A stretch of DNA of 64,000 nt from IMG/VR virus record IMGVR_UViG_3300042402_002792; one strand, given 5' to 3'. A program made the translations under genes and the position numbers. A model generated the notes under the pieces. That model searched no databases. It was not told the DNA's origin and saw only the letters and a program-made list of their open reading frames with translations. Positions 7,233-25,836 of the stretch are shown piece by piece; position 1 is the first letter of the stretch, and each line of letters opens with the position of its first letter. The DNA comes from a virus. Taxonomy: Duplodnaviria > Heunggongvirae > Uroviricota > Caudoviricetes.

Positions 7233-7235
7233 TCT

Positions 7236-8491: not shown

Positions 8492-8524
8492 AGACACAAG
8501 TTAGAAATTGTTCTTTAAAAATTT

Positions 8525-8599
8525 GCCGGATTAGCTCAGTGGTAGAGCAACCGCCTTGTAAGCGGTAGGTCGTCAGTTCAATCCCGACATCCGGCACCA
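8525..8599 (+). tRNA. tRNA-Thr (anticodon TGT)
   Basis: Perfect acceptor GCCGGAT/ATCCGGC. D-arm GCTC-AGTGGTA-GAGC. Anticodon stem ACCGC/GCGGT with loop CTTGTAA. T-loop TTCAATC. CCA is encoded. Confidence 0.65.
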
Positions 8600-8902: not shown

Positions 8903-8976
8903 GCGGGGTTAGTTTAATGGCAAAACAGCAGATTTCCAATCTTCGGTCGAGAGTTCGATTCTCTCACTCCGCTCCA
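8903..8976 (+). tRNA. tRNA-Gly (anticodon TCC)
   Basis: Acceptor GCGGGGT/ACTCCGC. D-arm GTTT..AAAC. Anticodon loop TTTCCAA. T-arm GAGAG-TTCGATT-CTCTC. CCA is encoded. Confidence 0.6.
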
Positions 8977-8987
8977 AAATATAAATT

Positions 8988-9620: not shown

Positions 9621-9694
9621 GACCTTAGCTCAGTTGGTAGAGCGTCTGCCTTACACGCAGAATGTCGTCGGTTCGAACCCGGCAGGTCCTACCA
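9619..9694 (+). tRNA. tRNA-Val (anticodon TAC)
   Basis: Perfect acceptor AGGACCT/AGGTCCT. D-arm GCTC-AGTTGGTA-GAGC. Anticodon stem TCTGC/GCAGA with loop CTTACAC. T-loop TTCGAAC. CCA is encoded. Confidence 0.65.
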
Positions 9695-9701
9695 AAAAAT
9701 T

Positions 9702-9778
9702 CGGAGTGTAGCGCAGTCTGGTAGCGCACCTGGTTTGGGACCAGGGGGTCCAAGGTTCGAATCCTTGTACTCCGACCA
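9702..9778 (+). tRNA. tRNA-Pro (anticodon TGG)
   Basis: Acceptor CGGAGTG/TACTCCG. D-arm GCGC..GCGC. Anticodon stem CCTGG/CCAGG with loop TTTGGGA. T-arm CAAGG-TTCGAAT-CCTTG. CCA is encoded. Confidence 0.65.
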
Positions 9779-9794
9779 TATTTAAGGACTATGT

Positions 9795-9947
9795 ATGCCA
9801 ATGTATGAGACAACTGTAAGAACACCACAAGGTGAAGAAAAGAAGCGAATCTATGCGGATACACCGCAAGAGGCTAAAAAACTTTTTGAAACGTTGTACG
9901 GTGGTCCTCGAGCAGTTCCGTATATTCCAAAAATAGTCGCAAGTTAA
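9795..9947 (+). CDS. Small hypothetical protein of 50 aa
   Basis: Open reading frame MPMYETTVRTPQGEEKKRIYADTPQEAKKLFETLYGGPRAVPYIPKIVAS with an AAGGA ribosome-binding site 6 nt upstream. It sits between two tRNAs and was too short for the ORF track. Confidence 0.35.
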   Translation: MPMYETTVRTPQGEEKKRIYADTPQEAKKLFETLYGGPRAVPYIPKIVAS

Positions 9948-9948
9948 C

Positions 9949-10024
9949 GGGGGATTAGCTCAGCTGGGAGAGCGGTAGCTTTGCAAGCTATAGGTCAACG
10001 GTTCGATCCCGTTATCCTCCACCA
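9949..10024 (+). tRNA. tRNA-Ala (anticodon TGC)
   Basis: Acceptor GGGGGAT/ATCCTCC including a G3·U70. D-arm GCTC-AGCTGGGA-GAGC. Anticodon stem GTAGC/GCTAT with loop TTTGCAA. T-arm AACGG-TTCGATC-CCGTT. CCA is encoded. Confidence 0.65.
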
Positions 10025-10781: not shown

Positions 10782-12191
10782 ATGAACGCATTTGTAAACG
10801 CAATCGCAAATCAAGAAGCCCGTACCGCAAACGGTATGAAGGCACGTAAGTCAACAGCTAAGGCTACCGTTGACCTGTTCTACAACATCGGTGCAAGCCG
10901 TGGTAAGGACATCACAGGCGACTTCACAGCCGCTTATGTGGAAAACGCAGACGTAGCATTACGCATCGCACAATGGGCACGTGATGTCCGAGGTGGTGCA
11001 GGTGAACGTCAACTGTTCCGTGATATTCTAGTTCATCTAGAAAAGCGTGACCCAGACGCCGCTTTGGCTCTTCTAAAGAAGATTCCAGAAGTTGGACGTT
11101 GGGATGACATCTTTGTCTTCACCAACCCTGTTCTGAAGTCAGCCGCTTATACCATGTTGGGCGATGCCCTTCGTGCTAATAACGGTCTGGCTGCAAAGTG
11201 GACCCCCCGTAAGGGTCAAATTGCCGCTGAGATTCGTGCCTTCTTTGGCATGACTCCGAAGCAATATCGTAAGAGCCTTGTTGCTCTTACCAAGGTGGTT
11301 GAAACCCAGATGTGTGCTAACGACTGGGATAACATCAACTTTAGCCATGTTCCTTCTGTGGCTGCTCGCAACTACAAGAAGGCATTCAACCGTCACACTC
11401 CTCTGTTCGCAGAGTATGTGGCCAAGTTGGTGGCAGGGGATAAGACTGTTAAGGTTAACGCCAGCGCAATCTTCCCACATGATGTCCTAAAGGGCATCGC
11501 ACACAGCTACACTAAGCTGAACAAGACAGAAACCGACCATGTGATTGCACAATGGGACGCTCTGCCTAACTATGTAGGTGACGCAAGTATCCTACCTCTA
11601 GTTGACGTTTCTGGTTCGATGACAACATCTGTTCCAGGTTCAACTGTTCGCTGTTTAGATGTAGCAGTCGGTCTAGGCTTGTATCTTGCAGATAAGAACA
11701 AGGGTGTGTTCAAGGACACGTTCTTGACTTTCTCAAGCAAGCCACAACTGGCTACTCTAAAGGGTAACATTGTTGCAAAGGTTGACCAAATGTCAAGTAG
11801 CAACTGGGAAATGAGCACTAACTTGCATGCCGCTATGGACAAGATCCTAAGCGTTGCAGTTAAGGGTTCAGTACCGGCTAGTGACATGCCAAAGATGTTA
11901 CTCATCTTGAGTGACATGCAGTTTAACCAATGTGCTCGTTTCGACGACTCAGCAATGCAAATGATTGAACGAAAGTTCGCAGATGCAGGTTACACTGTTC
12001 CGCAAATTGTTTTCTGGAACCTAAACAGTTCTGGCAACGTGCCTGTAAAGGCAGACAAGAGTGGCGCGGCACTGGTAAGTGGTTTTAGTCCAAGCATCAT
12101 GACAGCTCTGTTGTCAGCGGATATGGACCAATTCACTCCAGAAGGTATCATGATGAAGACTGTAATGGTTCCTCGTTATGACCTTAACTAA
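10782..12191 (+). CDS. Ro60/TROVE-like or DUF2828-like protein with a C-terminal vWA (MIDAS) domain
   Basis: 469 aa. MIDAS motif DxSxS (LVDVSGSMTT) within a vWA-like C-terminal half, and a helical N-terminal half. Noticeably GC-richer than its neighbours. AGGTAAT ribosome-binding site. Confidence 0.5.
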   Translation: MNAFVNAIANQEARTANGMKARKSTAKATVDLFYNIGASRGKDITGDFTAAYVENADVALRIAQWARDVRGGAGERQLFRDILVHLEKRDPDAALALLKKIPEVGRWDDIFVFTNPVLKSAAYTMLGDALRANNGLAAKWTPRKGQIAAEIRAFFGMTPKQYRKSLVALTKVVETQMCANDWDNINFSHVPSVAARNYKKAFNRHTPLFAEYVAKLVAGDKTVKVNASAIFPHDVLKGIAHSYTKLNKTETDHVIAQWDALPNYVGDASILPLVDVSGSMTTSVPGSTVRCLDVAVGLGLYLADKNKGVFKDTFLTFSSKPQLATLKGNIVAKVDQMSSSNWEMSTNLHAAMDKILSVAVKGSVPASDMPKMLLILSDMQFNQCARFDDSAMQMIERKFADAGYTVPQIVFWNLNSSGNVPVKADKSGAALVSGFSPSIMTALLSADMDQFTPEGIMMKTVMVPRYDLN

Positions 12192-12466: not shown

Positions 12467-12958
12467 ATGCCGTGGATTGAAAATGTAAGTTTGGGAGATA
12501 TCCCAAAAGGTCGGCATCACCTTGCTGGCGAGAATAGTATGCTAATTCAGATTGTTGATCCCGGCATGGAGTTTCCTCACCCTATGCACAAGTTCAAAGA
12601 GACACATCGATTTCAGTTTCTGGACCTTGAGGTAGGTGATGCATTTGGTGAAGAATTTAAAGTCACCGATGCTCAGGCGGACCTACTTGTCAGACTATTA
12701 CAACATGCATTGGACAAAAGAATGAATGTAGTTGTTCACTGTGTTGCAGGAGTGTGCCGGTCGGGTGCGGTCTGTGAGGTTGGTGTAATGATAGGCTTTA
12801 ATGATACTGAAGTTTTTCGTAGTCCTAACTTAATGGTCAAGCATAAGATGATGAAAGTTTTAGGTTGGACTTATGATGAAAACGAAGCGCACACTATTAA
12901 TGGTGTAATTTTAGATTCTGGGCTTATTGTGCCTAAGAACTACGAAGGTGATATTTAA
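12467..12958 (+). CDS. Dual-specificity (Cys-based, CX5R) phosphatase
   Basis: VVVHCVAGVCRSGAV matches the VHCxAGxxRSG DSP/PTP P-loop signature. 163 aa. Confidence 0.65.
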   Translation: MPWIENVSLGDIPKGRHHLAGENSMLIQIVDPGMEFPHPMHKFKETHRFQFLDLEVGDAFGEEFKVTDAQADLLVRLLQHALDKRMNVVVHCVAGVCRSGAVCEVGVMIGFNDTEVFRSPNLMVKHKMMKVLGWTYDENEAHTINGVILDSGLIVPKNYEGDI

Positions 12959-12973
12959 AGAAAGGAGGGCAAG

Positions 12974-13579
12974 ATGCCTAGTGTATTTTTAGTTAGCGAC
13001 ACGCATTTCGGACATACCGGCGTCTGTCGCTTCACACGTAACGATGGTGTTACAAAGTTACGCCCATGGGATAGTCCTGAAGAAATGGACGAAGCTATGA
13101 TCAAGGCGTGGAACGAGCGAGTTAAACCCACTGACAAGGTCTACCACTTGGGCGATGTTGTCATCAACCGTAAGGCCATGTCAACGTTAGCTCGTTTAAA
13201 CGGCGACAAGGTTTTAATCCGCGGCAACCACGACATCTTCCGTGACGACGAGTACAGACAGTACTTTAGAGAATTACGTGCATACCATGTTATGAACGGA
13301 ATGATCTTAAGTCACATTCCTGTACATAGTGATAGCTTAGGACGTTTTGGAGTTAACATTCACGGACACTTACACGCAAACCGCGTTAAGAAGGCCCGTG
13401 GTGTTGATGCACGTACAGGAGAGATCTTATACAGCGATGAGAACGATGTTCGTTACCATTGTGTCTGCGTAGAGCAAACACCTAACTTTGCTCCTATATT
13501 GTTTGAAGAAGTAATTGCACGGATTGAAGCAGAAGGTGGCACAGTTGGTTTTAAAAACGGCAACGGCCCTACAATGTAA
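12974..13579 (+). CDS. Calcineurin-like metallophosphoesterase
   Basis: Motifs DTHFGH, GDVV, GNHD and GHLH. AAGGAGG ribosome-binding site. Confidence 0.65.
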   Translation: MPSVFLVSDTHFGHTGVCRFTRNDGVTKLRPWDSPEEMDEAMIKAWNERVKPTDKVYHLGDVVINRKAMSTLARLNGDKVLIRGNHDIFRDDEYRQYFRELRAYHVMNGMILSHIPVHSDSLGRFGVNIHGHLHANRVKKARGVDARTGEILYSDENDVRYHCVCVEQTPNFAPILFEEVIARIEAEGGTVGFKNGNGPTM

Positions 13580-13683
13580 AGAAAAAGAATGTCTTATCGT
13601 AAATATTATTTTAAACAAATGATTAGGACCGTTAAGGCATTCTTACTGTATACCAAAGGGTTTGTTTTAAATAGGAAAATATA

Positions 13684-14145
13684 ATGTCAAAATGTTATCA
13701 GTTAATCGGAGTACCGGCAAGCGGAAAAAGTACCTGGGCCGAAGCTCAAGACTGGGCGCATCTTTGTGCCCACATTAGCACAGACAAATGGGTAGAAATC
13801 TTTGCTAAAGAGATTGGCAGTACTTATAGTCAAGTGTTTACAGACTTTATGCCTACTGCTGTAGAACTTATGGCTAAAGAAGTTGTTGTTGCTCGAGACA
13901 TGGGACGAGATATTATTTGGGACCAAACTAGCACTACTGTAAAAAGTCGTACTAAGAAATTTGCTATGTTGCCAGATTATTATCATATTGCTGTGGTATT
14001 TAAAATACCCGAGCATAAAGAACTTTACCGCAGACTACTTAGCCGGCCAGGCAAGGATATTCCAGATCATGTTATTGCCAGCATGATTGCTAATTTCGAA
14101 ATGCCTACAGAAGAAGAAGGATTTAAAGAAATATGGTACGTATAA
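13684..14145 (+). CDS. Polynucleotide 5'-kinase, matching the T4 Pnk/PseT N-terminal kinase domain only
   Basis: Walker A GVPASGKSTWAEA compared with T4 Pnk GCPGSGKSTWAREF. IIWDQTSTT compared with T4 IISDTNLN. 153 aa, about the kinase-domain length. No HAD phosphatase domain is present. Confidence 0.6.
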   Translation: MSKCYQLIGVPASGKSTWAEAQDWAHLCAHISTDKWVEIFAKEIGSTYSQVFTDFMPTAVELMAKEVVVARDMGRDIIWDQTSTTVKSRTKKFAMLPDYYHIAVVFKIPEHKELYRRLLSRPGKDIPDHVIASMIANFEMPTEEEGFKEIWYV

Positions 14146-14876
14146 TTTTACTTTTATTATTTGTAACACAGAGTGCTTTTGCTCAGCAATGGACGTCAAT
14201 AGAATATTTTGATAAACCGATTCCGATTAAATTTTTTAAATCTGAAAAATCTGGTAAAAACCCTACAGTGTTAATAGTGCATGGAACAGCTGGCGTTTCG
14301 AACAGAGAAGAAAATTGGGCAAGATTTTTTCATAAAAATTCTTATAATGTGTTAATAGTTGATTTTAAAACAGGAAGATTTACTAGTCCACAAGATCGTA
14401 ATAAGGTAAATTTTGAAGGACTTGTTACGTGGACACATCAATGGTTAAAAGATCATCCAGAAGTAGACCCAAATAATATTACTTATATGGGACTAAGTTT
14501 AGGAGGATTTTTAGGTTTTTGGTTAGATAATACAGCCGCATTTAACAACTATATTTTGTTTTACCCAGGATGCTTTCATCTATTAAATAGAAGAGAAGGC
14601 CTTGTTGTAAAGGAAAGAATCAATCCTACATTAATAATATGGGGAGAATCGGACAGTTATGAAGAAGGAACTTACTGTCCTAGAGTTTTAAATAAAATGA
14701 ACGGAAAGGTTTCTGGGCATTCTATTCCTAATGCCGGACATGGATTTGATGGCGATAGATTTGTATCTTCATTTTCTGATCCAGCTAGCCCTAGTGGTCG
14801 AGCAAGTTTAGAACCAAATAACAATGCTTTAAATAGTTCTAGACAAAAAATAATAGAATTTTTATCAATTAAATAA
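14133..14876 (+). CDS. Secreted alpha/beta hydrolase (dienelactone-hydrolase-like)
   Basis: Signal peptide MVRIILLLLFVTQSAFA. GxSxG nucleophile elbow (GLSLGG). 247 aa. Confidence 0.5.
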   Translation: MVRIILLLLFVTQSAFAQQWTSIEYFDKPIPIKFFKSEKSGKNPTVLIVHGTAGVSNREENWARFFHKNSYNVLIVDFKTGRFTSPQDRNKVNFEGLVTWTHQWLKDHPEVDPNNITYMGLSLGGFLGFWLDNTAAFNNYILFYPGCFHLLNRREGLVVKERINPTLIIWGESDSYEEGTYCPRVLNKMNGKVSGHSIPNAGHGFDGDRFVSSFSDPASPSGRASLEPNNNALNSSRQKIIEFLSIK

Positions 14877-14879: not shown

Positions 14880-15467
14880 ATGGATACTTTTGCAGAAATT
14901 TATTACCCAGAGTTAGTAGCTGATGTTCAAAACATATACTGGGATACTATTGATAAAATAGGTAAACAAACTGTAGGACGTACTATTAAAAGTATCACTA
15001 TTGATAAAGAAAATCCTGAACATTATCCATTGTGCCTTTTATATAAAAAATATGAATCAATTTTATCTCCCCATTTTTTACTTATTCATGTAACACCCAA
15101 ATTTACAACTCCGATACATTTAGACGGTGCGTTACCAACAAAACAAAGACAGACAAGTTTTAATATTCCTATAGAAGGATGCAACGGAGAGTGTGTAACT
15201 GAATTTTTTGATATTCCTGAAAATGACTTTTGGATAGATTATCCAAATGCAACTAGATTTTTAAAAGACGGCATTACCGAATCAAAAATCGGTGAATATC
15301 GATTAACTAGTAATCCAGTTTTAGTATGTCCTCAAACACCACATAGAGTCAACAATCTTCAAGGAACTGTTGATAGAATTACAGTTAGTTGGTCGTTAAG
15401 ACGAGACTGGTCATTTCGAAAAGCCTTTAATTTTTTTAAAGAACAAGGTCGACTTGTTTTAAATTAA
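14880..15467 (+). CDS. 2OG-Fe(II) oxygenase-like protein
   Basis: Motifs HLD ... PHRV ... RITVS (HxD, distal His, RxS). Confidence 0.4.
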   Translation: MDTFAEIYYPELVADVQNIYWDTIDKIGKQTVGRTIKSITIDKENPEHYPLCLLYKKYESILSPHFLLIHVTPKFTTPIHLDGALPTKQRQTSFNIPIEGCNGECVTEFFDIPENDFWIDYPNATRFLKDGITESKIGEYRLTSNPVLVCPQTPHRVNNLQGTVDRITVSWSLRRDWSFRKAFNFFKEQGRLVLN

Positions 15468-16289
15468 ACTATTTTCAATACTTGTTGTTATACTTTCGCC
15501 CAACGGTACACGCATAATACCATTTGGTCGTTTATAAAAATTATAAGATAAATCTTCAGTAGTTGCCAGCAGAGCACTGTCACTAGGGATTAGTTCTGTA
15601 TGTAGTTTACAGAATTTTTCTTGATAATGCTTTAGTGTTTCTGCTAATGATGTTATTGACATGTCTCTGCAAATTTTTAATGCTGATCTAAACACCCCAG
15701 GCCCCACATACCCAAATGTTTTTTGAAAAATTTCTAAATGCTGAATCGGTTTTTTACTAAAAATAATTCCAGATCTTAACTCTGGAATACCTAGATTTTT
15801 ACTAAAGCCTAATAAAACTATTTCGGTATTTTCAGGAATTGGTGTTTTAGTCAAACTAGTGCCTATGTATGCTCCGTCTAGTATGTGCATTTTGCTAGGC
15901 CAAGTTGTATTAACTACATTACCATCAACAGCACTAGGACATGATGCGTAACTAATTTCACAAGGGACTTTTTCATTTACTTCTAATCCGGCCTTGATAG
16001 TCTTAAGCCAGAAATAATCTCCTTGTAACAGATGTATATTCTTATACATTAGTCCTAGCGTTTCTAGACCTTGAGTAATGCCATTATTCATTAGATAAGA
16101 ATATCTAAATTGATCTAACTGTATTAACGGATTATACCATTCTTTAACTTCAGAACAAATATCATTTATTTCGGAGTTACCTATTGGTTCAACAAATCTA
16201 TCAACAATCTGAAGCTGATTAATAATACTAGGTAACCGAATAGGGGTTACTTTAGGAAAAGGATACTTTCCTTTTTGATCTAAAAACAT
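15459..16289 (-). CDS. PLP-dependent aminotransferase-like protein (short)
   Basis: 276 aa. SKNLGIPELRSG resembles the SKxxGxxGxRxG PLP-lysine motif of class I/II aminotransferases. Confidence 0.4.
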   Translation of the reverse strand: MFLDQKGKYPFPKVTPIRLPSIINQLQIVDRFVEPIGNSEINDICSEVKEWYNPLIQLDQFRYSYLMNNGITQGLETLGLMYKNIHLLQGDYFWLKTIKAGLEVNEKVPCEISYASCPSAVDGNVVNTTWPSKMHILDGAYIGTSLTKTPIPENTEIVLLGFSKNLGIPELRSGIIFSKKPIQHLEIFQKTFGYVGPGVFRSALKICRDMSITSLAETLKHYQEKFCKLHTELIPSDSALLATTEDLSYNFYKRPNGIMRVPLGESITTSIENSLI

Positions 16290-16299
16290 AGTTAACTTA

Positions 16300-17103
16300 T
16301 TAAGACTTTTTCGGTTTGCTAATTAATTTTGCTATCTGTCCTTCTAGGTCAAATTCCCACCAGCGATGAGTGTTAATTAATTCGCGTTGATTATGATGAT
16401 GGTTATTATGCCAACCAAACCCTAATGTGAGATAACCCACAAGTATGTTATTTTGACTAGTATCAGTCGTATCAAAATTACGATAGTTTAGGAAAGGTAT
16501 GTTCATGTGTGTTATACTACTGACAATATTTTCTCTTGTGTGTTCTAAAATAGCAGGCAGTAGATACAAACTTAGGGCTAGGCTAAGATCAATATATGCC
16601 AGTGCAAGGAAGACAATCCAGTTAATCTTTATAAAGTGTTTACTAATCCACATCAAGAACGGGTCTTTGAACACACGCCTTGAACAATAATTTTGTAAAC
16701 TAATAACCTTGTTAGTGCTTTCTTTTAGTCTGTAGATTAAAAAACTTTGTAGAAATCCATACTGACTAGGACTGCTAGGATCTGCAGGAAGATCTGATAT
16801 CTTATGATGCTTCTGATGAATAGCTACCCAAAAATGTATTGGAGCAAAGCCCCCTAACGTACTAAGAACAGCTAGGGTATACTCTACAGGTTTCCATGTT
16901 TCAAATTGTCTGTGGGCAAAAAGTTTATGACTACCTACACCGTTTCCTATAGGACCAACAAGGAACCATGCGAGCACGACCAACCACCAGTTGATTGTTA
17001 AATGCCCTAGATAAACAGCTATTAACATCATCACAGCTATGATGTGCATGGGCAACCAGTATCTCCAAAAATATCTATTCATAGTATTAAAAAATATTGT
17101 CAT
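16300..17103 (-). CDS. Membrane fatty-acid desaturase
   Basis: Three His boxes (HKLFAHRQF, HQKHHK, HNNHHH) and multiple transmembrane segments. Confidence 0.65.
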   Translation of the reverse strand: MTIFFNTMNRYFWRYWLPMHIIAVMMLIAVYLGHLTINWWLVVLAWFLVGPIGNGVGSHKLFAHRQFETWKPVEYTLAVLSTLGGFAPIHFWVAIHQKHHKISDLPADPSSPSQYGFLQSFLIYRLKESTNKVISLQNYCSRRVFKDPFLMWISKHFIKINWIVFLALAYIDLSLALSLYLLPAILEHTRENIVSSITHMNIPFLNYRNFDTTDTSQNNILVGYLTLGFGWHNNHHHNQRELINTHRWWEFDLEGQIAKLISKPKKS

Positions 17104-17129
17104 ACAGTATTTAACCTATAAATATTTTC

Positions 17130-18614
17130 ATGAAGAAAAATATACATGCATTGCTTATTGGAAGTATTGATTTTGATTTAGTATCTCGGCCTATAGGATT
17201 ATTTAGACTTAGAACTGCTGCTGAAGATCAAGGATTTGATGTTGAGGTAATTGACTATAGTTGGTGTATTAGCGAAAATGAAATGTTAGCCATATGTGAT
17301 CACTGTATAGGAGACAATACATTAGTCTTTGGAATTAGCGGTGTCTGGTGGTCATTTTTAGGTCTAGACGCAGGTACAAAAAAACATTCATGGGCGTGTG
17401 AAAGTTTTTTTAATACATTTAAGAAAAAATATCCGCATGTAAAAATAGTACTAGGGTCGCCGCCAACTGGAATGAATATACCTCGAGTGTTAAAAGATAA
17501 TTCTGATTGGGTTTTTAGCGGATTTTCTGATCAAAGTTTTCCAGAACTGCTTAAAAAACTATCTGGACAAGATTCTACTTTAAAATATTTTAAAGAAAAT
17601 AATCATTATGTAGTTAATAGTAATAGAGATCATATAACGCACGACATGTCAACAATACAGACAAAATGGAAAAAATCTGATGGGTGGACTGAACATCAAC
17701 CTATCCCATTAGAGTTAAGTAGAGGTTGTATTTTTAAATGCGCTTTTTGTAACCATCCATTTCTTGGAAAAAAGTCTTTTGACTATATTAGATCGTCAGA
17801 AAGCATTGCAGACGAATTATCACAAAATTATGAGTTGTTCGGGACTACTAGATACCTATTACTTGATGACACTATGAATGATAGTTTAGAAAAGTTAGAC
17901 CGATTAGACAAGGCTATTGAATTATCTAAAATTCCAAATTTTGAATTCTGTGCCTATATTAAACCAGAAACAATCGTTGCTAACCCTAGCATGATTGAAA
18001 AATTAAAACATCTAGGGTTAAGAGGCGGCTTTGTCGGTATCGAAAGTTTTAATATGCCAGCTAGAAAGATCATAGGAAAAGGGATGGATATTGACAAAGT
18101 TAACGACGTGTGTGCTAAACTAGTATCTCAAAGTAACGCAAAACTTTTTTGTAGTTTAATTTTAGGTCTACCTGGTGATAAATTAGAAGATGCTGATAAA
18201 TGGTTAGACTTTCTAAAAGCAAATAAAAACGATCTTTATTCTTGCTGGAATATGCATCCTTTAGGAATTATGGGAGAGGTTGGAGAGAATGGCGCAAGTT
18301 TAATCGAAAAAAATCCAGAAAAATTTGGATACACATTACTAGGATTTAATCCATCTCAAAATATATGGAATTGGAAGAATGAGAATATGTCTAATATCTC
18401 AGCCAGTCTTAAAGCCAATCAGTTTAGACATAACAGTGCAGGGTATGTAACTGCCGGAGGGTGGGCTGTTGGTAGTCACTGGTATATAGGATCCAGTGAC
18501 GATGTCATTGATAATCAAGAGTTAAAATTAGATAGGCTTGCTAAAGCTACTTCTGCTATTAGTGTTGACCGTAAAAAACAGATTTTGCAATTTTTAAATT
18601 ATTTTGAAAAATAA
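17130..18614 (+). CDS. B12-binding-domain radical SAM enzyme
   Basis: 494 aa. CxxxCxxC (RGCIFKCAFCNH) following an N-terminal Rossmann-like, B12-binding-type region. Confidence 0.55.
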   Translation: MKKNIHALLIGSIDFDLVSRPIGLFRLRTAAEDQGFDVEVIDYSWCISENEMLAICDHCIGDNTLVFGISGVWWSFLGLDAGTKKHSWACESFFNTFKKKYPHVKIVLGSPPTGMNIPRVLKDNSDWVFSGFSDQSFPELLKKLSGQDSTLKYFKENNHYVVNSNRDHITHDMSTIQTKWKKSDGWTEHQPIPLELSRGCIFKCAFCNHPFLGKKSFDYIRSSESIADELSQNYELFGTTRYLLLDDTMNDSLEKLDRLDKAIELSKIPNFEFCAYIKPETIVANPSMIEKLKHLGLRGGFVGIESFNMPARKIIGKGMDIDKVNDVCAKLVSQSNAKLFCSLILGLPGDKLEDADKWLDFLKANKNDLYSCWNMHPLGIMGEVGENGASLIEKNPEKFGYTLLGFNPSQNIWNWKNENMSNISASLKANQFRHNSAGYVTAGGWAVGSHWYIGSSDDVIDNQELKLDRLAKATSAISVDRKKQILQFLNYFEK

Positions 18615-19369
18615 AATTTTATAAACCATGCAGGTATATCTAATTCCCACCATTTATGTCCTAATTTCCAATTATTAGGATCAGCATGATGATTATTGTG
18701 CCAACCTTCTCCCATGGTAAGATATCCAGCCCATAAACTATTTGTTGCTTGATCTTTTTCTAAATTATAATTTTTATAACCGTGTAAATGACAATACCAA
18801 TTTACAAACAAGTTGGCTTCGATTTTCCATAAAACAGCAGCTGGCACAAATACATACCAAAATGCCTTACTGCTAACAGCAAGTATCACAGTGAAAACTA
18901 TTATTAAAATTTTATAGTAATGCTGATCATACCAAAGTAAAAATTTATCACGTAGCAAATCTCTGTATATTTTCATTTGCAATACTTTTTGTCTTTGTTC
19001 TAAAGTAAGTTCCCAACCTATTACAGTATTCCAAAAACCAGTAGTAGGACCGTGGACATCTTTATCTTCTCCCTGGTCGCTGTGTTTATGATGGTGTCTA
19101 TGACTTATAGCAAATTTTAAAGGGCTATGATTGACTTGAAAGATACTTAAAAAAATTATTAAATTATTTTTAAACTTGCTGCCTGCTTCAAAACTACGAT
19201 GACTTACAAGTCGATGGTGTAAACTTAGACACATGTGATTAAATCTAATCATGAACCATAACGGAATTAACCAAAGCCAATCTGCACCCTTATACATTAG
19301 ATAAAAACCAGTTAAGGTTAATATCCAAAACACAATGACAGTAAACTGATATTTAGAAATACGACTCAT
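18599..19369 (-). CDS. Membrane fatty-acid desaturase
   Basis: His boxes HRLVSH, HRHHH and HNNHH. Transmembrane N-terminus. Confidence 0.65.
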   Translation of the reverse strand: MSRISKYQFTVIVFWILTLTGFYLMYKGADWLWLIPLWFMIRFNHMCLSLHHRLVSHRSFEAGSKFKNNLIIFLSIFQVNHSPLKFAISHRHHHKHSDQGEDKDVHGPTTGFWNTVIGWELTLEQRQKVLQMKIYRDLLRDKFLLWYDQHYYKILIIVFTVILAVSSKAFWYVFVPAAVLWKIEANLFVNWYCHLHGYKNYNLEKDQATNSLWAGYLTMGEGWHNNHHADPNNWKLGHKWWELDIPAWFIKFYFSK

Positions 19370-19379
19370 TCAATTTAGA

Positions 19380-20165
19380 TTAAACAGTAGATTCTTTTTT
19401 CATAAAGAAGTGTTTTATCATAAAAGCAGGCGGGTCTATTTCATACCATCTTTCACCTTGCCACCAGCGGCCGGGATTAGCATGATGATTGTTATGCCAT
19501 CCTTCACCTAAAGCTAAAATACTAGCTAGCCAGTTATTATGACTTAGATCTTTTACTTCATAGCGTCGATACCCTAACTGCCACTTGCCAGTAAGATGAG
19601 GAAGTACGCCAATTGCCGCTGCTCCGTGGAAACACCCTATTGCAGGTAAGCAATAGGCAAATGCGGCCAATTTCCAATCTATTAGTGCAAGTATCAAGAT
19701 CGTAAAAAAGTTTAAAGCAAAATAATTTCTATGAACGAATCGCATAGAAGCAGTTTTAAGAAAGGGTACAACATGTCGTTTAGGCATAGATAACGGAGCC
19801 CAAACTGTAAACCATGTTTTAATCCAACCATCTCTAGCAGGATTGTGTGGATCTCGATTAGTATCACTAGTTGTGTGATGTAATCGATGAACGCTACACC
19901 ACATTGCAGGACTTCCTAAACTTGTAAAAATACTCGAAATTAAAAGTATCTTTTCTTTAATAGGTGTTGTTTCAAAACTCTTGTGGCTATAATACCTGTG
20001 AAGTGCTACATTTACTCCAACGATCCCAGTCCATAAAAAACATAAAAATCCTATAAGAGGCCATGTCCACGTAGGGTTATAAAATAACCATACAACTCCT
20101 GCGGTTGCAATAACATGATTTGTTACATGTAATATGCGAAATTTAGTAATATTATTAAAACTCAT
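19380..20165 (-). CDS. Membrane fatty-acid desaturase
   Basis: His boxes HRYYSH, HRLHH and HNNHH. Confidence 0.65.
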   Translation of the reverse strand: MSFNNITKFRILHVTNHVIATAGVVWLFYNPTWTWPLIGFLCFLWTGIVGVNVALHRYYSHKSFETTPIKEKILLISSIFTSLGSPAMWCSVHRLHHTTSDTNRDPHNPARDGWIKTWFTVWAPLSMPKRHVVPFLKTASMRFVHRNYFALNFFTILILALIDWKLAAFAYCLPAIGCFHGAAAIGVLPHLTGKWQLGYRRYEVKDLSHNNWLASILALGEGWHNNHHANPGRWWQGERWYEIDPPAFMIKHFFMKKESTV

Positions 20166-20190
20166 ACCTGTGCCTCTTTTATACTGGTAT

Positions 20191-20814
20191 TTATTTTTTC
20201 CGCCATTCAGGTTTTAGAACTCCGGTTCTTACAATGTAATCTTTGTGTGTATGTGTAACCCTACCCATCATTGCATAAACCCAATCGATATTAGATATTG
20301 TATTAGCAGGTATTTCGCACAGCGTATAAAAATCATATCTATTGTTTATTTCTGGAACTACTTTTATCCCAAAAGCATCAAATGCCCGGTGACGTTTTTT
20401 TTCTGTAATTGTGTGCCATCTAAGTTTTCCTCGAGATTCTGAATAAGAAAACATTTCTAACCAAAGTAACCGTAATCCTCCGTTTGACATTACATTTATT
20501 TTAGGATCTGCTTTTAAATAAGAAACCACCCAACCGTCATTCCACTCTTGAGGAAGATCATATCTAATAGCTACATATGCTAATAGTTGTTCTTCCTGAA
20601 AAATTCCCATCAATATATGATCAGTATCTTCTTCTGACAAATAATATTTTTCAACAGCAGAAAACCATAAGTCTGTCATTTTATAAAAATGCTCATCTTT
20701 AGATATACCTTCTCCTGTTTTTTTAGTCTGCTTTTTAGATATAGAATCAAAATTTCTATAATATATGTCTTTAATTTGAAAAAAATGATCTCGAGTTAGT
20801 ATTTTTACCTGCAT
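20191..20814 (-). CDS. Hypothetical protein
   Basis: 207-aa ORF in the minus-strand operon. Confidence 0.4.
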   Translation of the reverse strand: MQVKILTRDHFFQIKDIYYRNFDSISKKQTKKTGEGISKDEHFYKMTDLWFSAVEKYYLSEEDTDHILMGIFQEEQLLAYVAIRYDLPQEWNDGWVVSYLKADPKINVMSNGGLRLLWLEMFSYSESRGKLRWHTITEKKRHRAFDAFGIKVVPEINNRYDFYTLCEIPANTISNIDWVYAMMGRVTHTHKDYIVRTGVLKPEWRKK

Positions 20815-21344
20815 GGTTTATTCCATTCTTTAAGAACATTTTTATCACCGTAGTATAGTACATGTTGATAACAATCCGATGCATCTCCTTCACAGACCCA
20901 GATGTTTTCTCCTACAAAAAAATCTAAATTAATTTTTTTTAAATCTGAGATCATTTTATAAAATAATCTTTTATTTTTATTACGTGTAATAATTGCTATT
21001 CTAAAATTTGGTTGTTGCTTGCACCAAGAAATTTGTTCAGAAATCATTTCATATAATCCATCATTGATTGACTTTTGAACTGCTGTAACCCTAGGATATT
21101 GCCATGTCCTATTTAAAATTCTATAAGATCCTACAGGCCACCAATCTCGTCTATAGACTGTACTAAAGATTGTAGGATCTTGAGTTTGATTTTTTTTAAA
21201 ATATGTTAATATTTCTTGCTCATCTAAATTGAAACGTTCATCGCTATAATTTAAAGCAAGTTTGCTAGGCAAAGTTGATTGTATTTTCTTATACTGTTCG
21301 AAAACATAACGTCGAGGATCTCGACTGTCAAATAATTCTACCAT
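20805..21344 (-). CDS. Hypothetical protein
   Basis: 179-aa ORF whose start/stop overlaps its neighbours. Confidence 0.4.
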   Translation of the reverse strand: MVELFDSRDPRRYVFEQYKKIQSTLPSKLALNYSDERFNLDEQEILTYFKKNQTQDPTIFSTVYRRDWWPVGSYRILNRTWQYPRVTAVQKSINDGLYEMISEQISWCKQQPNFRIAIITRNKNKRLFYKMISDLKKINLDFFVGENIWVCEGDASDCYQHVLYYGDKNVLKEWNKPCR

Positions 21345-21349
21345 AAATC

Positions 21350-22099
21350 TTAATAGGTATCAAGATGTGATATACCTATTTTTTCTCTAAAGTCATCAGT
21401 AAATTTGCCGTCAATTCTTAAACTATATGTATAGGTTGATATGGCATCACCGCCGTGCCAGTCTAAACTATTAAAAAAGGCAGCTGGGGTATCTATATAA
21501 GTTTTTTCTTTAGTATCAGGATCTAATAGCCAAAACTTTTTTTTACCAGTAGGGTTAATCCAAACAAATTCTTCCCTATGTGGGAAATATTTAGGAGCAT
21601 CTCGATGTACTTGTAAAGTACAATCGTGTTCATTTAAAAAGAATACTATTCTACCTACATCTTCAAAAATTTTAATTTGATAAATCCATTCTAGTAATTT
21701 TGGGAAGTGTTCAGCATTTTCAGTAACTTCTGTATGTTCTGATCTGCCTTTTAAAAAATAATTTTCTAATCTTTTTTCTGGAGGCATATCACGTAATGTT
21801 ACCACTCTACTAGCATTGTACATTTCTTCGTACAGTTTAAAAAACACAGCACGTTGATCCCAATTAAGAGAATTAAAAATTTCTTTATCAAACTCATCAT
21901 GAGAAATTTTGTATTGTTTTGCTAAATCCATAAAAGATTTGCGTTGTTGAAGGTCCCCTAATCCTACACCATATATAGTAGTGCTTGTTTTACTTTTAGC
22001 TAGACCATAACATATTTCTTTATGTAAGGATTGTAAGGTACTTAGATCAATAAAATTAGTTAAATCAATATAGGATTGATTGTTTATACCCTTTAACAT
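21350..22099 (-). CDS. 2OG-Fe(II) oxygenase-like protein
   Basis: Motifs HRD ... WHGG (HxD plus distal His). Confidence 0.4.
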   Translation of the reverse strand: MLKGINNQSYIDLTNFIDLSTLQSLHKEICYGLAKSKTSTTIYGVGLGDLQQRKSFMDLAKQYKISHDEFDKEIFNSLNWDQRAVFFKLYEEMYNASRVVTLRDMPPEKRLENYFLKGRSEHTEVTENAEHFPKLLEWIYQIKIFEDVGRIVFFLNEHDCTLQVHRDAPKYFPHREEFVWINPTGKKKFWLLDPDTKEKTYIDTPAAFFNSLDWHGGDAISTYTYSLRIDGKFTDDFREKIGISHLDTY

Positions 22100-22102
22100 A
22101 AA

Positions 22103-22552
22103 TTACATTTCTTCTATTTTATTCCATGCTGATTCTAGATCATCAAAAGTTGTAGCAAGAGTTAACGGTAAAAAATAATCACCAGTTTTTTGAAAACTCT
22201 GGATCCCACTTAATTTTAAATAAGCTGCTCGTTTATTAGCGTAGTCTGTAAACCACGGTGTATCAGCAATAGATAACAAATCATCAACAGAATTAAACAC
22301 TGTTATAGTATAAGAAGTATCAACAGAATTGTCTCTTGAAAAATACGTTACAATTCCATTTGGTTTCTCTCTAAACTCTAACATTGCTACTGCCAAATCT
22401 TGATAAACTTGTGCGTTATAATACTGAAGCGGAACAATTGGATTATTGTCGGCATCTAAATTATTTTTTTGAAAAATACCTGTTACGCCGTCTAGTCCTT
22501 TATAAACAAGTCCGGGAACAGATGAAACATACTTTGTAAAAGAAATAAACAT
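22103..22552 (-). CDS. Hypothetical protein, paralog of the gene at 23505-23966
   Basis: Shared motif ADNNPIVPLQYYNAQVY compared with ADNQPIIPNQYFNKQVF. CAGGAG ribosome-binding site. Confidence 0.45.
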   Translation of the reverse strand: MFISFTKYVSSVPGLVYKGLDGVTGIFQKNNLDADNNPIVPLQYYNAQVYQDLAVAMLEFREKPNGIVTYFSRDNSVDTSYTITVFNSVDDLLSIADTPWFTDYANKRAAYLKLSGIQSFQKTGDYFLPLTLATTFDDLESAWNKIEEM

Positions 22553-22635
22553 GATTTTCTCCTGATTTGTAACTATTTAGCGATTGATAATTCACTTTAT
22601 TTTTTTCTGAAAAATTTCAAAATAAATATTGTACT

Positions 22636-23508
22636 ATGCAAGATAAAATTTACTTAGATGAAATACCTCACAATCATGCTGTTGACCGATACATCATGGA
22701 TGTAACTGGATCTAAAGAAAAGTGGTTAGCTGTAAAACATAGCTTAGTTAAAAATAAAGCCAAACTGAAAATTTTAGATTATAATCACGAAGCCCTGTCA
22801 GCTGATACTTTAGAAGCTATTCAACGATTTGGGTTTCATGGATGGACCAATAAGAGTATTTTACAACCAAACATTTCTAAATATGGAGGATTAAGCTTTG
22901 TTTATAATCCTAAACATCTAGACGAAATGGACAAAAACTCTAGTACGTTGGGTACAAGTAGAAACACTATAGATCAGTTTTATGATTATAATACTACAAA
23001 TACACCAAATCTAAAAAATAGCTATTTAGACACATATAGTTTTACTGAAAATACAGATTTAAGAAATTTTGGTTATATTAAAGATTTTCTAGATAGTAGA
23101 TCAAAAAGAACGCTTATTAGAAGTCGACTAGGTGTTATCAAAGCAGGAAATCCTAATTTTAAATTTAACGAATATGCATGGCATAGAGACGAGCAAATAT
23201 GTGTAAACATACGTATAAACATACCTATTGTTACAGAATTAGATTATCTGTTTCAATTAAGAGATGAAGAACCCTATCACTTAGAGACAGGGTATGCTTA
23301 TACATGGGACACTACTCACCCGCATAGGGTATATCATTTTGCTGAAACTACTAAAGATAGGATACATTTTGTATTAGGATATAGTCCGTGGTTTGATTTT
23401 GATAAAGAAAATCAATGCTGGATAAAAAATGAGTTTTGGGGTAAACACCCTATACAAATGGTTATGGACGGTGATATATTTTCAGGATTAGAGCTAGTTG
23501 ACAATTAG
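22636..23508 (+). CDS. 2OG-Fe(II) oxygenase-like protein
   Basis: 290 aa. Motifs HRD ... HPHRVYHF ... RIHF. Confidence 0.4.
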   Translation: MQDKIYLDEIPHNHAVDRYIMDVTGSKEKWLAVKHSLVKNKAKLKILDYNHEALSADTLEAIQRFGFHGWTNKSILQPNISKYGGLSFVYNPKHLDEMDKNSSTLGTSRNTIDQFYDYNTTNTPNLKNSYLDTYSFTENTDLRNFGYIKDFLDSRSKRTLIRSRLGVIKAGNPNFKFNEYAWHRDEQICVNIRINIPIVTELDYLFQLRDEEPYHLETGYAYTWDTTHPHRVYHFAETTKDRIHFVLGYSPWFDFDKENQCWIKNEFWGKHPIQMVMDGDIFSGLELVDN

Positions 23509-23966
23509 TCTAAAGATGATGCTGAATCTTCAAACATTTGAGCTGCAACAGCATAATTTGGAGGAAGTTCAGTAAGTTGCTGAGAAGAAAATTTAGCTGT
23601 CATAGTAACATCAATAAGATTTAAAAAATTTTGTCTAGCAGTGTTAAACGATGCTCTTTCCTCTGTTTGTAACAGTTCTCGATACTTTACATCATTTTTG
23701 TAAACTTGTAAGGTTATTATTTCGCTGTTTGCAGGATTAACATACGTATCATAATTGATAAAATCGCCGTCTGAAAAGCAGTTTCTAAAATTTCTTGCAG
23801 CATTCATCCACTCCATGAATACCTGCTTGTTAAAGTATTGGTTAGGGATAATAGGCTGATTATCCGCCGAATTATTTTCAGTAGAAATAATTTCTGCTAC
23901 CATCTGTAAGGGTATATATTTTGCATCAGGGGAGTTAGGTGACCACTTACTAATTATCAAAAACAT
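23505..23966 (-). CDS. Hypothetical protein, paralog of the gene at 22103-22552
   Basis: 153 aa with a conserved N-terminal motif shared with its paralog. Confidence 0.45.
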   Translation of the reverse strand: MFLIISKWSPNSPDAKYIPLQMVAEIISTENNSADNQPIIPNQYFNKQVFMEWMNAARNFRNCFSDGDFINYDTYVNPANSEIITLQVYKNDVKYRELLQTEERASFNTARQNFLNLIDVTMTAKFSSQQLTELPPNYAVAAQMFEDSASSLD

Positions 23967-24055
23967 GATTTAAATTCCTTTTAACACACGTATATTTATT
24001 ATCAACCTAATAATTGAAGGTAAAGCTGACCTTTTAAACTGCGTACTTTTTACTA

Positions 24056-25210
24056 TTATTCTTCAAATAATCTAGTAACTATGACTTCGTCGTTCAATAG
24101 TTGTTCTTTATCTTTATTAAAGAAAATAACCATTGCAGTTGTGTCTAATGAATTTTTTCTAGCAATTGGGACCATTACTTGACTTTTTATGTGTTTGAAT
24201 ACTTGTTGGACTGATTTTGAATTTTCAATGTCTTTCCATTTTATGTTTTTAGATAATCTTTCTCTATCATTTAGCAAATAGATTCTAGAAATAAATCCAT
24301 TTATTTTGTATGTTGACAAATCGGAGTTGTAAGGAAATTTATTTGTATAACATTCTATAGTTAACGAATGCTGAGTGTATTCTAGTGCTTTTGATGCGGC
24401 AATATAAGACATATGTCCGTGTAAGCGAAAATTAATTTCTATACAAAAAAATTGATTATCTTTAACTTTAAGCTCAATATGTGTAGGTCCAAACTGATGA
24501 TTCAATACATTTAACCATCCTGTTACTGCTTTATATATAGCATCAATAAGAAGCACTTCTTCATGAGGATCAATTAATTGTATCTTGTGCTTCCATATTT
24601 TTTCATCATTATTCCTTATATATTTCCAAACTGCAACTAGTTTATGTTTCCCCTCGCTACTAACTAAATCTACACCATACTCCTCACCTTCAAAATACTG
24701 AGAAATAAAATATTTTCCATTTTCATCTTTTGGATTATATGTGTCTCTAAAATAAACATCTACACATCCGCCTGTTAATTTTATGTCATAAGGTTTAACA
24801 ATACAATTTTTATATTGTTCTATAAATTCTTTAAAATTGTTTTTAGAAGAATTTTGTCCTAATAATTGGTACAAATGAAACTTATCGTATCTTTCATTGG
24901 AAAAAGTTTTGTCGTTCGATTTATCTAAACTTAACAGTTCATCTATAAGGTCTTTACACTGTTGAGCAGATTCTGTGCAAGCAAATGAAAATAATATGTT
25001 GTGTTTAAATGATTGTATTTCATTTAAAAATTTTTCTGGAGTTTCAAAAATAAAACAAGTTTTATAAAGATAAGATTCTACTTTGTTAAAATGAGTATGA
25101 AAAGATTCTTTTGAACTAAAAATATGAATAGGAATGATTCCGTAGTTAGCACTTACCGCTGCTATGGAATTATGAGACATAAAACCATCTATAATAAGAG
25201 AGTATTTCAT
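24056..25210 (-). CDS. ATP-grasp family enzyme
   Basis: 384 aa. C-terminal ...CIEINFRLHG (catalytic E-x-N plus R of ATP-grasp). Glycine-rich ATP-binding region. Confidence 0.5.
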   Translation of the reverse strand: MKYSLIIDGFMSHNSIAAVSANYGIIPIHIFSSKESFHTHFNKVESYLYKTCFIFETPEKFLNEIQSFKHNILFSFACTESAQQCKDLIDELLSLDKSNDKTFSNERYDKFHLYQLLGQNSSKNNFKEFIEQYKNCIVKPYDIKLTGGCVDVYFRDTYNPKDENGKYFISQYFEGEEYGVDLVSSEGKHKLVAVWKYIRNNDEKIWKHKIQLIDPHEEVLLIDAIYKAVTGWLNVLNHQFGPTHIELKVKDNQFFCIEINFRLHGHMSYIAASKALEYTQHSLTIECYTNKFPYNSDLSTYKINGFISRIYLLNDRERLSKNIKWKDIENSKSVQQVFKHIKSQVMVPIARKNSLDTTAMVIFFNKDKEQLLNDEVIVTRLFEE

Positions 25211-25836
25211 TATATGTTATTTTTTTCTATTACAAATTTATTATATTTGTTATAAGACATTTCTATAAGATTTAAAAATTTATTATAATTGTTAATTTTT
25301 CCTCTAATAATTCCTAAAACTTTTTTTCCGTTTGGGACAGTTGCACCGTGTTTGCAACTATAATTATTAAAAGCAAACACGTTTGCATCGGGTGGTAAAT
25401 CTATATACTTAGAACGATTTTCATACTTAATAAAAAATGAAGGGTCTTCTTGTATTAGTACAAATCTAAATCTAAAATCCGTTTCTTGGTCGTACACTTT
25501 TTGATCCATATGTGCAGGAACAGCTATTTTATTACACCACAGACTTATAGTTTCAACTTCTATAGGAAGATATTCATTTAATATGTTAATTTCTTCAATT
25601 AACAACTCTTTAATATCTAAGAACTTTCCAGGATATAAGATTTTCGATTCATCAACATCTTCTTTTTTATAGCACAACATTCCTTCCCAGAATTCGGGAA
25701 TTTTGCTATCACTAGGCTTGCTTATTGATTCTTTGTGCGTTAAAAAAATATCTAAGATTTTATCTTTATATCTAAAAGGCAAGTAAGGAATAGCCAACGG
25801 CAAAAAAAATACATCATTAACATTTAAATTAGACAT
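25210..25836 (-). CDS. 2OG-Fe(II) oxygenase-like protein (Asp/Asn beta-hydroxylase-like pattern)
   Basis: Motifs AHMD ... KHGATVP. AGGAG ribosome-binding site upstream. Confidence 0.35.
   Translation of the reverse strand: MSNLNVNDVFFLPLAIPYLPFRYKDKILDIFLTHKESISKPSDSKIPEFWEGMLCYKKEDVDESKILYPGKFLDIKELLIEEINILNEYLPIEVETISLWCNKIAVPAHMDQKVYDQETDFRFRFVLIQEDPSFFIKYENRSKYIDLPPDANVFAFNNYSCKHGATVPNGKKVLGIIRGKINNYNKFLNLIEMSYNKYNKFVIEKNNI

Follow-up and report, generated by a model that had tools for sequence, protein, structure and literature searches.

A candidate lipid-tailoring cassette with three paralogous desaturases in a large T4-like freshwater phage

Two described systems come closest to the gene island examined here, which lies at positions 15459-25836 of a 64,000-nucleotide stretch of Caudoviricetes DNA (IMG/VR record IMGVR_UViG_3300042402_002792; this whole stretch is hereafter called the window). 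The first is the cyanophage desaturase vFAD, a single delta-9 lipid desaturase gene found among photosynthesis-related auxiliary genes (Roitman et al., 2018; PMC5776448). The second is the 'desaturase triad' of the bacterial polyyne clusters cay, pgn, ccn and col, which acts on a fatty acid bound to an acyl carrier protein (ACP), all members of the triad being needed (PMC9828172; PMC8406139). The island shares features with both, in that it is carried by a phage and encodes three paralogous membrane desaturases. In the literature, no phage cassette was found described that combines desaturases with radical S-adenosylmethionine (SAM), ATP-grasp and pyridoxal 5'-phosphate (PLP) enzymes. To our knowledge, phages have so far been credited only with single desaturases as lipid genes, and these are presumed to adjust host membranes.

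We propose that the island is one functional unit, namely a phage-borne cassette for a specialized, multiply unsaturated lipid, a reading to which we give slightly less than an even chance. The proposal is based on the domain identities of the encoded proteins, on their intact catalytic residues, on the co-occurrence of the genes in related phages, on their fixed position in this lineage and on the purifying selection acting on them. The original prediction, made from the DNA letters and a list of their open reading frames (ORFs), had described the island as a lipid or fatty-acid tailoring cassette. Its domain calls were right, and the co-occurrence in related phages strengthens that description, which is supported in part; the lipid C-methylation role envisaged for the radical SAM enzyme is not supported, as discussed below. 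All the ORFs named in the prediction exist at the positions it gave.

The island consists of 13 tightly packed ORFs, 11 of which are on the minus strand, within an otherwise plus-strand region. Its GC content is 31.8%, against 41.2% in the left flank and 39.8% in the right flank. The genes are as follows (L numbers, here and below, denote related loci):

15459-16289, minus strand: F0, a truncated class-I aminotransferase-fold, PLP-dependent-like protein of 276 aa (profile search, AlphaFold 2 (AF2) model, invariant residues)
16300-17103, minus strand: D1, a predicted di-iron membrane desaturase of the stearoyl-CoA desaturase (SCD)/DesC type (Pfam FA_desaturase, E 1.6e-11, 44.9 bits)
17130-18614, plus strand: a radical SAM enzyme of 494 aa with an N-terminal B12-binding-like domain, subfamily A (Radical_SAM, E 7e-13)
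18599-19369, minus strand: D2, a predicted SCD/DesC-type desaturase (Pfam FA_desaturase, E 1.4e-15, 58.2 bits)
19380-20165, minus strand: D3, a predicted SCD/DesC-type desaturase (Pfam FA_desaturase, E 1.2e-13, 51.9 bits; SCD1, 4ymk, E 9e-13)
20191-20814, minus strand: F6, an N-acyltransferase with the GCN5-related N-acetyltransferase (GNAT) fold, missing from the original prediction
20805-21344, minus strand: F30, 179 aa, a shortened relative of F19 (iterative hidden Markov model (HMM) search)
21350-22099, minus strand: F20, a cupin-like HxD...H protein and candidate non-haem iron oxygenase, in one superfamily with the protein at 25210-25836, F13 and F36
22103-22552, minus strand: F4a, 149 aa, a paralogue of F4b (family clustering)
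22636-23508, plus strand: F21, a candidate 2-oxoglutarate oxygenase similar to Asp/Arg-beta-hydroxylases (weak Asp_Arg_Hydrox match, HMM link)
23505-23966, minus strand: F4b, 153 aa, a paralogue of F4a (family clustering)
24056-25210, minus strand: a predicted ATP-grasp ligase of the L-amino-acid-ligase type (Pfam ATP-grasp_4, ATP-grasp_3)
25210-25836, minus strand: F14, 208 aa, the second member of the HxD...H cupin-like family (iterative HMM search)
14880-15467, plus strand: F29, a flanking ORF of 195 aa with an HxD...H pattern and doubtful membership of the cassette (only in the window and L001-L003; no Pfam match)

When the island proteins were compared with the PHROGs, the desaturases alone found a match, to one family without function. 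A scan for promoters and terminators found such sites no more frequently than expected by chance.

The scores of all three desaturases exceed the Pfam gathering score for FA_desaturase (PF00487), which is 29.7 bits, and the histidine boxes HX4H, HX2HH and (G/E)GWHNNHH are intact in D1-D3 and in their orthologues, confirming the three membrane desaturases with canonical histidine boxes of the original prediction. The boxes read HKLFAH, HQKHH and HNNHH in D1, and HRLVSH, HRHHH and HNNHH in D2. D3 aligns box for box with the mouse enzyme SCD1 (structure 4ymk), and its histidine-box histidines, together with H180 and H190, are invariant across 28 orthologues. On the strength of these matches, the three proteins are predicted to be SCD/DesC-type (delta-9 family) desaturases, and not carotenoid or sterol hydroxylases, the other identity that had been considered for them. 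They are deeply diverged paralogues, mutually just 27-31% identical, and separately conserved. Against the NCBIfam DesA equivalog model they score 47-72 bits, below the cut-off of 400. A simple hydropathy scan showed hydrophobic stretches near residues 10-55 and 150-190 and did not resolve four helices per protein.

The search for homologues of D3 (E <= 1e-5) returned 383 sequences, and the best 120 of the 383 are 50-84% identical to it. Among the related loci, the D1 and D3 orthogroups are found in nine loci each and D2 in five, with the histidine boxes intact in all; D1 and its L004 orthologue are 86% identical. When 50,697 phage records were searched by tblastn, one genuine phage relative came up, from Pelagibacter phage Mosig (24% identity), and two other matching records look bacterial; no cyanophage desaturase was matched at E <= 1e-5 in the same search. 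Among plasmids, D3 is best matched (32% identity) by a desaturase of a FAAL-desaturase-desaturase-ACP natural-product cluster of B. gladioli, FAAL being a fatty acyl-AMP ligase. This cluster, as well as the polyyne systems (PMC9828172; PMC8406139), indicates that SCD-type desaturases work in thiotemplated pathways. In a neighbour-joining tree, the phage desaturases are no closer to the desaturases of biosynthetic gene clusters than to housekeeping ones. It should be noted that a metagenome scan with the D3 profile caught the generic GEGWHNN motif and mostly distant desaturases, about a dozen loci being informative.

Related loci were fetched by means of the radical SAM protein, F0 and D3, and the ORFs of 12 of them were clustered. 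F0 is present in all 12, and all ten loci with enough flanking sequence carry between one and seven desaturases beside it. Such recurrence of the gene set, in 12 related loci, means that the island genes are not a chance neighbourhood. The core of the cassette is made up of the desaturases, the PLP enzyme and the ATP-grasp enzyme, and F0 is its signature gene. Members of the HxD...H family and of F19/F30 also recur among the cassettes, some versions of which contain, in addition, a Rieske protein and a QueC/Asn-synthase-like PP-loop ATPase. The window contains the minimal desaturase triad among the cassettes. A sister phage, represented by L004-L006, has five desaturases and, inside the cassette, an ACP of 81 aa with a GADSLD motif (L004 17184-17429), which was seen only in loci of the L004 type.

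The arrangement of the genes is conserved as well. In this lineage, the cassette has a fixed place upstream of a block encoding a cupin, IF1, a metallophosphoesterase, ClpP and a DNA ligase. Within the cassettes, the orders desaturase-GNAT-desaturase and D1-(F13)-F0-ATP-grasp are kept on the same strand, with overlapping stops and starts. In more distant metagenomic loci, desaturases are found with F0 (L027, L029, L033 and L034) or with genes for radical SAM and PP-loop proteins (L030, L036, L041, L047 and L058).

Compared with L004, the desaturases of the window are 76-86% identical, the radical SAM enzyme 57%, most of the compared flanking phage core genes 50-64% and IF1 84%. Compared with the closest relative, L001, the ratio of non-synonymous to synonymous substitution rates (dN/dS) ranges from 0.04 to 0.26 in 11 of the 13 island genes (0.06 for F30); for D1, synonymous sites are saturated and dN is low (0.083). 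The ATP-grasp pair is too diverged for dN/dS: window 24056-25836 and L001 16887-18086 show a non-orthologous replacement of this gene, with 26% identity, against 74-95% for the neighbouring genes. Purifying selection acts on 12 of the 13 island genes, and the ATP-grasp gene has been exchanged for a distant subtype.

These data bear directly on the alternative that survives best, although we consider it unlikely, namely that the genes have separate jobs: the desaturases would remodel host membrane lipids, affecting fluidity or stress tolerance, and the other enzymes would be unrelated auxiliaries gathered in a hyperplastic region. Phage delta-9 desaturases acting on host lipids do have a precedent (PMC5776448), and the low GC and variable content of the island would suit such a region, as would the lack of an ACP, a FAAL and a thioesterase in the window, the occurrence elsewhere of the same radical SAM subfamily without desaturases, and the swapping of the ATP-grasp gene independently of its neighbours. 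However, a single fluidity function would not need three to seven paralogues kept as distinct orthogroups at 27-31% identity. Nor does the idea of unrelated auxiliaries sit easily with the fact that F0 is accompanied by desaturases wherever a locus has enough flank, even in a different phage family, or with a conserved gene order on one strand with overlapping stops and starts.

The signature gene, F0, has 99 metagenomic homologues and no relatives in a collection of 185,579 species genomes of bacteria and archaea. Pfam gave no match to F0, and so none to Aminotran_1_2. A profile built from 26 F0 homologues matched fold-type-I aminotransferases alone (HisC, ACC synthase, alliinase, TAA1 and CobD); the match covers the lysine motif, and K164, within GFSK, aligns with the FSK lysine of HisC (3ffh). 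K164, D138, Y141 and R172 are invariant. The AF2 model of F0 (predicted local distance difference test score, pLDDT, 92.6) retrieved with Foldseek, as top matches, the class-I aminotransferases and C-S lyases DapC, HisC, TAA1, BacF and PatB, with a template modelling score of about 0.6 over the query; at 276 aa, F0 is about 50-120 residues shorter than these structural neighbours (317-394 aa). Profile and model agree with the PLP-enzyme-like gene that had been noticed at this position. A sphingolipid-like scheme, in which a PLP oxoamine synthase would act with a GNAT ceramide synthase and an ACP, was considered and is not favoured because the F0 model is unlike enzymes of the BioF/SPT type.

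The ATP-grasp ligase of the original prediction is likewise confirmed, with scores above the Pfam cut-offs for ATP-grasp_4 (32.5 vs 27 bits) and ATP-grasp_3 (31.3 vs 23.2 bits) and an NCBIfam match to PRK07206 (E 9e-29). The closest solved structures are L-amino acid ligases (PDB, E 1.2e-5 and 1.1e-3), and the enzyme is predicted from these similarities to be of the L-amino-acid-ligase type. It was found in nine loci, mostly directly downstream of F0, and at least three subtypes, mutually about 25% identical, are present across the cassettes. The GNAT protein F6 occurs in six loci, in four of which it lies between two desaturases, and its matches include acetyltransferases that confer resistance to tabtoxin and phosphinothricin. 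An acyltransferase of this fold is in keeping with a product conjugated to an amino acid.

The same enzymes, together with the oxygenases resembling Asp/Arg-hydroxylases and the radical SAM enzyme as a B12-type C-methylase, could be taken to mean that an amino acid or peptide is at the centre of the pathway, which would yield a modified amino acid, a dipeptide antimetabolite or a protein modification, in the manner of bacilysin, tabtoxin or phosphinothricin, with the desaturases in a secondary role. F0 resembles BacF, HisC and DapC, the ATP-grasp enzyme resembles L-amino acid ligases, the GNAT matches include the resistance acetyltransferases just mentioned, the best matches of the radical SAM enzyme are PhpK and protein glutamine C-methyltransferase (QCMT), and an Asn-synthase/QueC-like PP-loop enzyme is present in other cassettes. 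We nevertheless regard this explanation as improbable, considering that no other members of the cassette are as numerous as the desaturases, which are also among those best conserved, and that pathways of that kind have no established place for integral membrane di-iron desaturases.

The radical SAM enzyme is placed between D1 and D2 on the opposite strand. It scores 49.5 bits against Radical_SAM (PF04055; cut-off 29.5 bits), and the CX3CX2C motif (C200/C204/C207) is invariant in 37 radical SAM sequences. The B12-binding domain (PF02310) is weakly detectable at residues 19-140, at 14.8 bits against a cut-off of 32.1; the same domain is matched by 11 of the 37 homologues, the best at 2e-5. Of the B12-binding radical SAM enzyme originally called, the radical SAM core is confirmed and the B12-binding part is tentative. 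The best NCBIfam models are PhpK, TIGR04072, HpnJ, MJ_1487, ApyD and the MCR glutamine C-methyltransferase, which are all B12 radical SAM families and are all matched far under their cut-offs. The best solved relative by sequence is 9ccb (E 8.6e-6), which is QCMT, a class-B B12 radical SAM enzyme according to a 2026 review (PMC12931638).

A match to hopanoid or other lipid C-methyltransferase families, proposed as a check on the original prediction, was looked for and not obtained: the scores for the named lipid families, relative to their NCBIfam cut-offs, are 21.4/650 for HpnR, 47.4/577.6 for HpnJ and 60/360 for the ladderane-associated TIGR04072, whose alignment spans residues 21-360. Lipid C-methylation is possible but not supported, as the enzyme stays well under the cut-offs of all named families, lipid-related or otherwise, has QCMT as its best solved relative by sequence and belongs to a subfamily that also occurs without desaturases. 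An identity as a methylthiotransferase (RimO/MiaB), the unrelated function that the original prediction had weighed against its own, was rejected, because there is no full-length match including the UPF0004 and TRAM domains; RimO matches the core alone, and weakly (NCBIfam E 7.5e-4; PDB E 0.005).

No homologue of the radical SAM enzyme was found in cultured phages. The closest relatives found (at least 29% identity) came solely from phage-like metagenomic contigs and short contigs of metagenome-assembled genomes (MAGs). As for cellular homologues, the search revealed close relatives (about 29-33% identity) on no contigs other than those of MAGs, most of them below 5 kb and one of 58 kb, and these may be mis-binned phage DNA; the other cellular matches are 20-27% identical or of partial coverage. 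The broad family comprises at least three subfamilies. Subfamily A, to which the window enzyme belongs, is found inside cassettes in the window, L004 and L013, and also in jumbo-phage contigs without a nearby desaturase (L007 and L008). Subfamilies B and C, about 30% identical to the window enzyme, form tight desaturase-desaturase-radical SAM operons (L011, L012, L047, L058, L030 and L036), with all genes on one strand in the first four, and two cassettes, L016 and L017, lack a radical SAM gene. From these operons, from the separate occurrence of subfamily A and from the two cassettes without the gene, we conclude that radical SAM enzymes are recurrent but non-obligatory partners of the desaturases; for the copy in the window, the link to the desaturases is suggestive only. 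As a separate observation, in two unrelated contigs (L004 10001-12068 and L110 1840-4265) the radical SAM gene closest to that of the window adjoins a member of the F14/F20 HxD...H family, which hints at a two-gene module.

The original prediction had also counted four hydroxylase-like genes. One, F21 (22636-23508), is a candidate: it reaches 19.1 bits against Pfam Asp_Arg_Hydrox (PF05118; cut-off 22.6), iterative HMM searches link it to the two proteins that are annotated as Asp_Arg_Hydrox in Pelagibacter phage Mosig, and its residues H183 and H230 are invariant, with D185 and R242 near-invariant. Two more, F20 and F14, form one family with F13 and F36, in which H(xD) and the second histidine are invariant, and profile searches with F20 and F14 against Pfam and the PDB gave no significant match. 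A fourth was not identified within the region indicated. F14 is found in L012, L017 and L018 and is absent from the closest relative, L001. A halogenase-like HxG reading of F13 was dropped because the alignment is ambiguous.

The remaining proteins are F30 and the two members of F4. F30 is linked by iterative HMM search to F19 of L011, L014 and L017, and F19 adjoins the ATP-grasp gene in other cassettes. A sulfotransferase function for F19/F30, suggested by a 'PRSGS' motif, was rejected, as neither Pfam nor the PDB supports it and the motif is missing from the copy in the window. The F4 family was found in seven loci by BLAST clustering, to which iterative HMM search added L013. Profiles of F4 and of F19/F30 gave nothing significant against the PDB, and the window copies likewise gave nothing significant against Pfam.

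How these proteins may work together can be proposed as follows. During infection, D3, D2 and D1 would work, whether stepwise or as a complex, on a single fatty acyl chain drawn from host lipid, from CoA or from a carrier protein, the sister phage supplying its own ACP. The radical SAM enzyme of the B12 type and the HxD...H oxygenases might further modify the chain or the head group by C-methylation, C-C bond formation or hydroxylation. F0, with its aminotransferase fold, would make or alter an amino acid or amine, and the ATP-grasp and GNAT enzymes would form amide bonds, giving a product of the N-acyl amino acid or lipoamino-acid type. As the ATP-grasp subtype varies, the head group would vary between phages. 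We infer the acyl substrate, the order of the steps, the product and the participation of all the genes in a single pathway from these predicted activities. In its most specific form, the proposal is of a self-contained, natural-product-like pathway of freshwater jumbo phages, so far known from phages alone, with a conserved desaturase core and a swappable ATP-grasp head-group ligase, leading to a polyunsaturated and possibly methyl-branched or cyclized lipoamino acid; this form is tentative, and we consider it clearly less probable than the functional unity of the island.

The scheme would have to draw on the host. Except for an unrelated CxxC ORF at 54885-55172, no ORF with a rubredoxin or ferredoxin motif was found in the window, and no ORF with a DSL motif that could be an acyl carrier. 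Since the window encodes neither an electron donor nor an acyl carrier, host ferredoxin and host acyl donors would therefore be needed.

Several points weigh against a lipid pathway encoded by the whole island. A Pfam and motif scan found no FAAL, ACP, thioesterase, ferredoxin or rubredoxin in the window. F0 resembles ordinary aminotransferases and C-S lyases, unlike acyl-condensing oxoamine synthases, and the nearest structures to the GNAT protein F6 are acetyltransferases, not long-chain N-acyl amino acid synthases. The radical SAM gene is missing from two cassettes, and its subfamily A exists away from desaturases, as described above. Three gene families of the island have no assignable function, and the content of the island is highly variable, as in hyperplastic regions that collect unrelated genes.

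The least likely of the explanations considered is a thiotemplated toxin of the alkyne or polyyne type, directed against competitors, grazers or the host, in which the triad would act both as desaturases and as acetylenases, on a fatty acid bound to a carrier: the three SCD-type desaturases, the ACP of the sister phage, the jamABC-like context of the best plasmid match of D3 and the need of the bacterial systems for all three desaturases (PMC9828172; PMC8406139) point to it, but neither the window nor the related loci inspected contain a FAAL, a thioesterase or a rubredoxin, the ACP was seen only in the L004 type, and the tree shows no specific affinity to biosynthetic gene clusters, to whose desaturases the identity is only about 30%.

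The source of the window is a large T4-like jumbo phage from freshwater, with a genome of about 364 kb. A protein identical to F0 (276 aa, 15459-16289) was found on contigs of 363,992-364,317 bp, in at least 37 assembly-collection blocks. The window contains 25 tRNA genes (58-10024), which cover most amino acids and are interleaved with protein-coding ORFs; a set of this size is unusually large and typical of jumbo phages. PHROG matches in the window include tail-fibre, virion and endonuclease families. In a megablast comparison with cultured phages, no near-identical DNA was found for the island or the right flank, and the tRNA genes were the sole match of the left flank. At 55511-63010 (plus strand) lies a gene for a protein of 2499 aa whose N-terminal domain is that of T4 gp9/10 and which also contains three E1_FCCH-like repeats; it is probably a giant baseplate or fibre protein.

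Other genes of the window are of interest in their own right. Amid the tRNA genes, a flavin-dependent tryptophan halogenase is encoded at 3793-5241 (plus strand; Pfam Trp_halogenase, E 6e-84). The gene at 10782-12191 (plus strand) encodes a DUF2828/DUF7788 protein that matches PHROG 850 'RNA-binding protein' (E 3e-140), and is placed between the tRNA region and a trio at 12467-14145 that consists of a DSP phosphatase, a metallophosphoesterase and an AAA_33 kinase. Near the left edge of the island, with F29 intervening, an alpha/beta hydrolase similar to dienelactone hydrolase, with a signal-peptide-like N-terminus (14133-14876, plus strand), looks secreted, and of the related loci only L001 and L002, the closest ones, share it. 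At 38005-39048, a PstS-like periplasmic phosphate-binding protein is encoded (plus strand; PBP_like_2, E 2e-36); such proteins are common phage auxiliary genes in phosphate-poor waters. A second low-GC island (34%), at 40623-48426, contains five radical SAM genes, at 40623-41573 (plus), 43194-44711 (minus), 44704-46083 (minus), 46080-47135 (minus) and 47074-48426 (plus), the last of which has a SPASM domain. These five genes may be a peptide-maturation-like set.

Several protein families of the cassette are seen only in phage-like contigs. A cassette with up to seven desaturases, which is under selection and whose genes are found on many metagenomic contigs and samples, suggests a multi-step specialized lipid chemistry run by phages. 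If this is true, a new kind of viral metabolite would have to be considered in aquatic ecology, the compact and co-evolved set of desaturases would be of use for studying regiospecificity and the cooperation of multiple desaturases, and the function-less families F0, F4, F14/F20 and F19/F30 would acquire an experimental context. The lipoamino-acid pathway, if real, would amount to a new class of virus-made specialized lipid, with possible roles in host-envelope remodelling, exclusion of rivals or deterrence of grazers.

A similar arrangement is found in Pelagibacter phage Mosig EXVC030M (MT647606, Kyanoviridae), in which an Asp_Arg_Hydrox gene, an FA_desaturase gene and a 'putative aminotransferase' gene (a homologue of F0, 30% identity) are adjacent, with radical SAM and other tailoring genes near, in a hyperplastic island of auxiliary genes. 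Mosig, however, is a 141-kb phage of another lineage, has a single and shorter desaturase (216 aa), and possesses neither an annotated ATP-grasp gene beside the F0 homologue nor a B12-type radical SAM enzyme of the window family. The radical SAM enzyme itself is comparable with the class B enzymes (QCMT 9ccb, TokK, PhpK, HpnR/HpnJ and those modifying glycerol dialkyl glycerol tetraethers), with which it shares the CX3CX2C core and would share a preceding N-terminal Rossmann-type domain, but it is far under every family cut-off, and its cobalamin-binding domain is under the Pfam threshold.

With vFAD, the cassette shares phage-encoded DesC/SCD membrane desaturases with three histidine boxes, an origin in T4-like myoviruses of aquatic bacteria and a presumed action on acyl chains during infection. 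It differs in having three to seven diverged desaturase paralogues together with PLP, ATP-grasp, GNAT, oxygenase and radical SAM genes, and psbA and psbD, part of the setting of vFAD, are not present in the window. With the polyyne clusters, it shares co-encoded paralogous SCD-type desaturases, three of them in the window, and, in one sister phage, a dedicated ACP. The phage cassette has no FAAL, thioesterase or rubredoxin, and no AMP-binding (FAAL) gene was found among the island ORFs or the called genes of the related loci; it has instead PLP, ATP-grasp, GNAT, HxD...H and B12 radical SAM enzymes. The polyyne triad is the nearest mechanistic precedent, and the phage cassette is a member neither of the polyyne nor of the vFAD kind.

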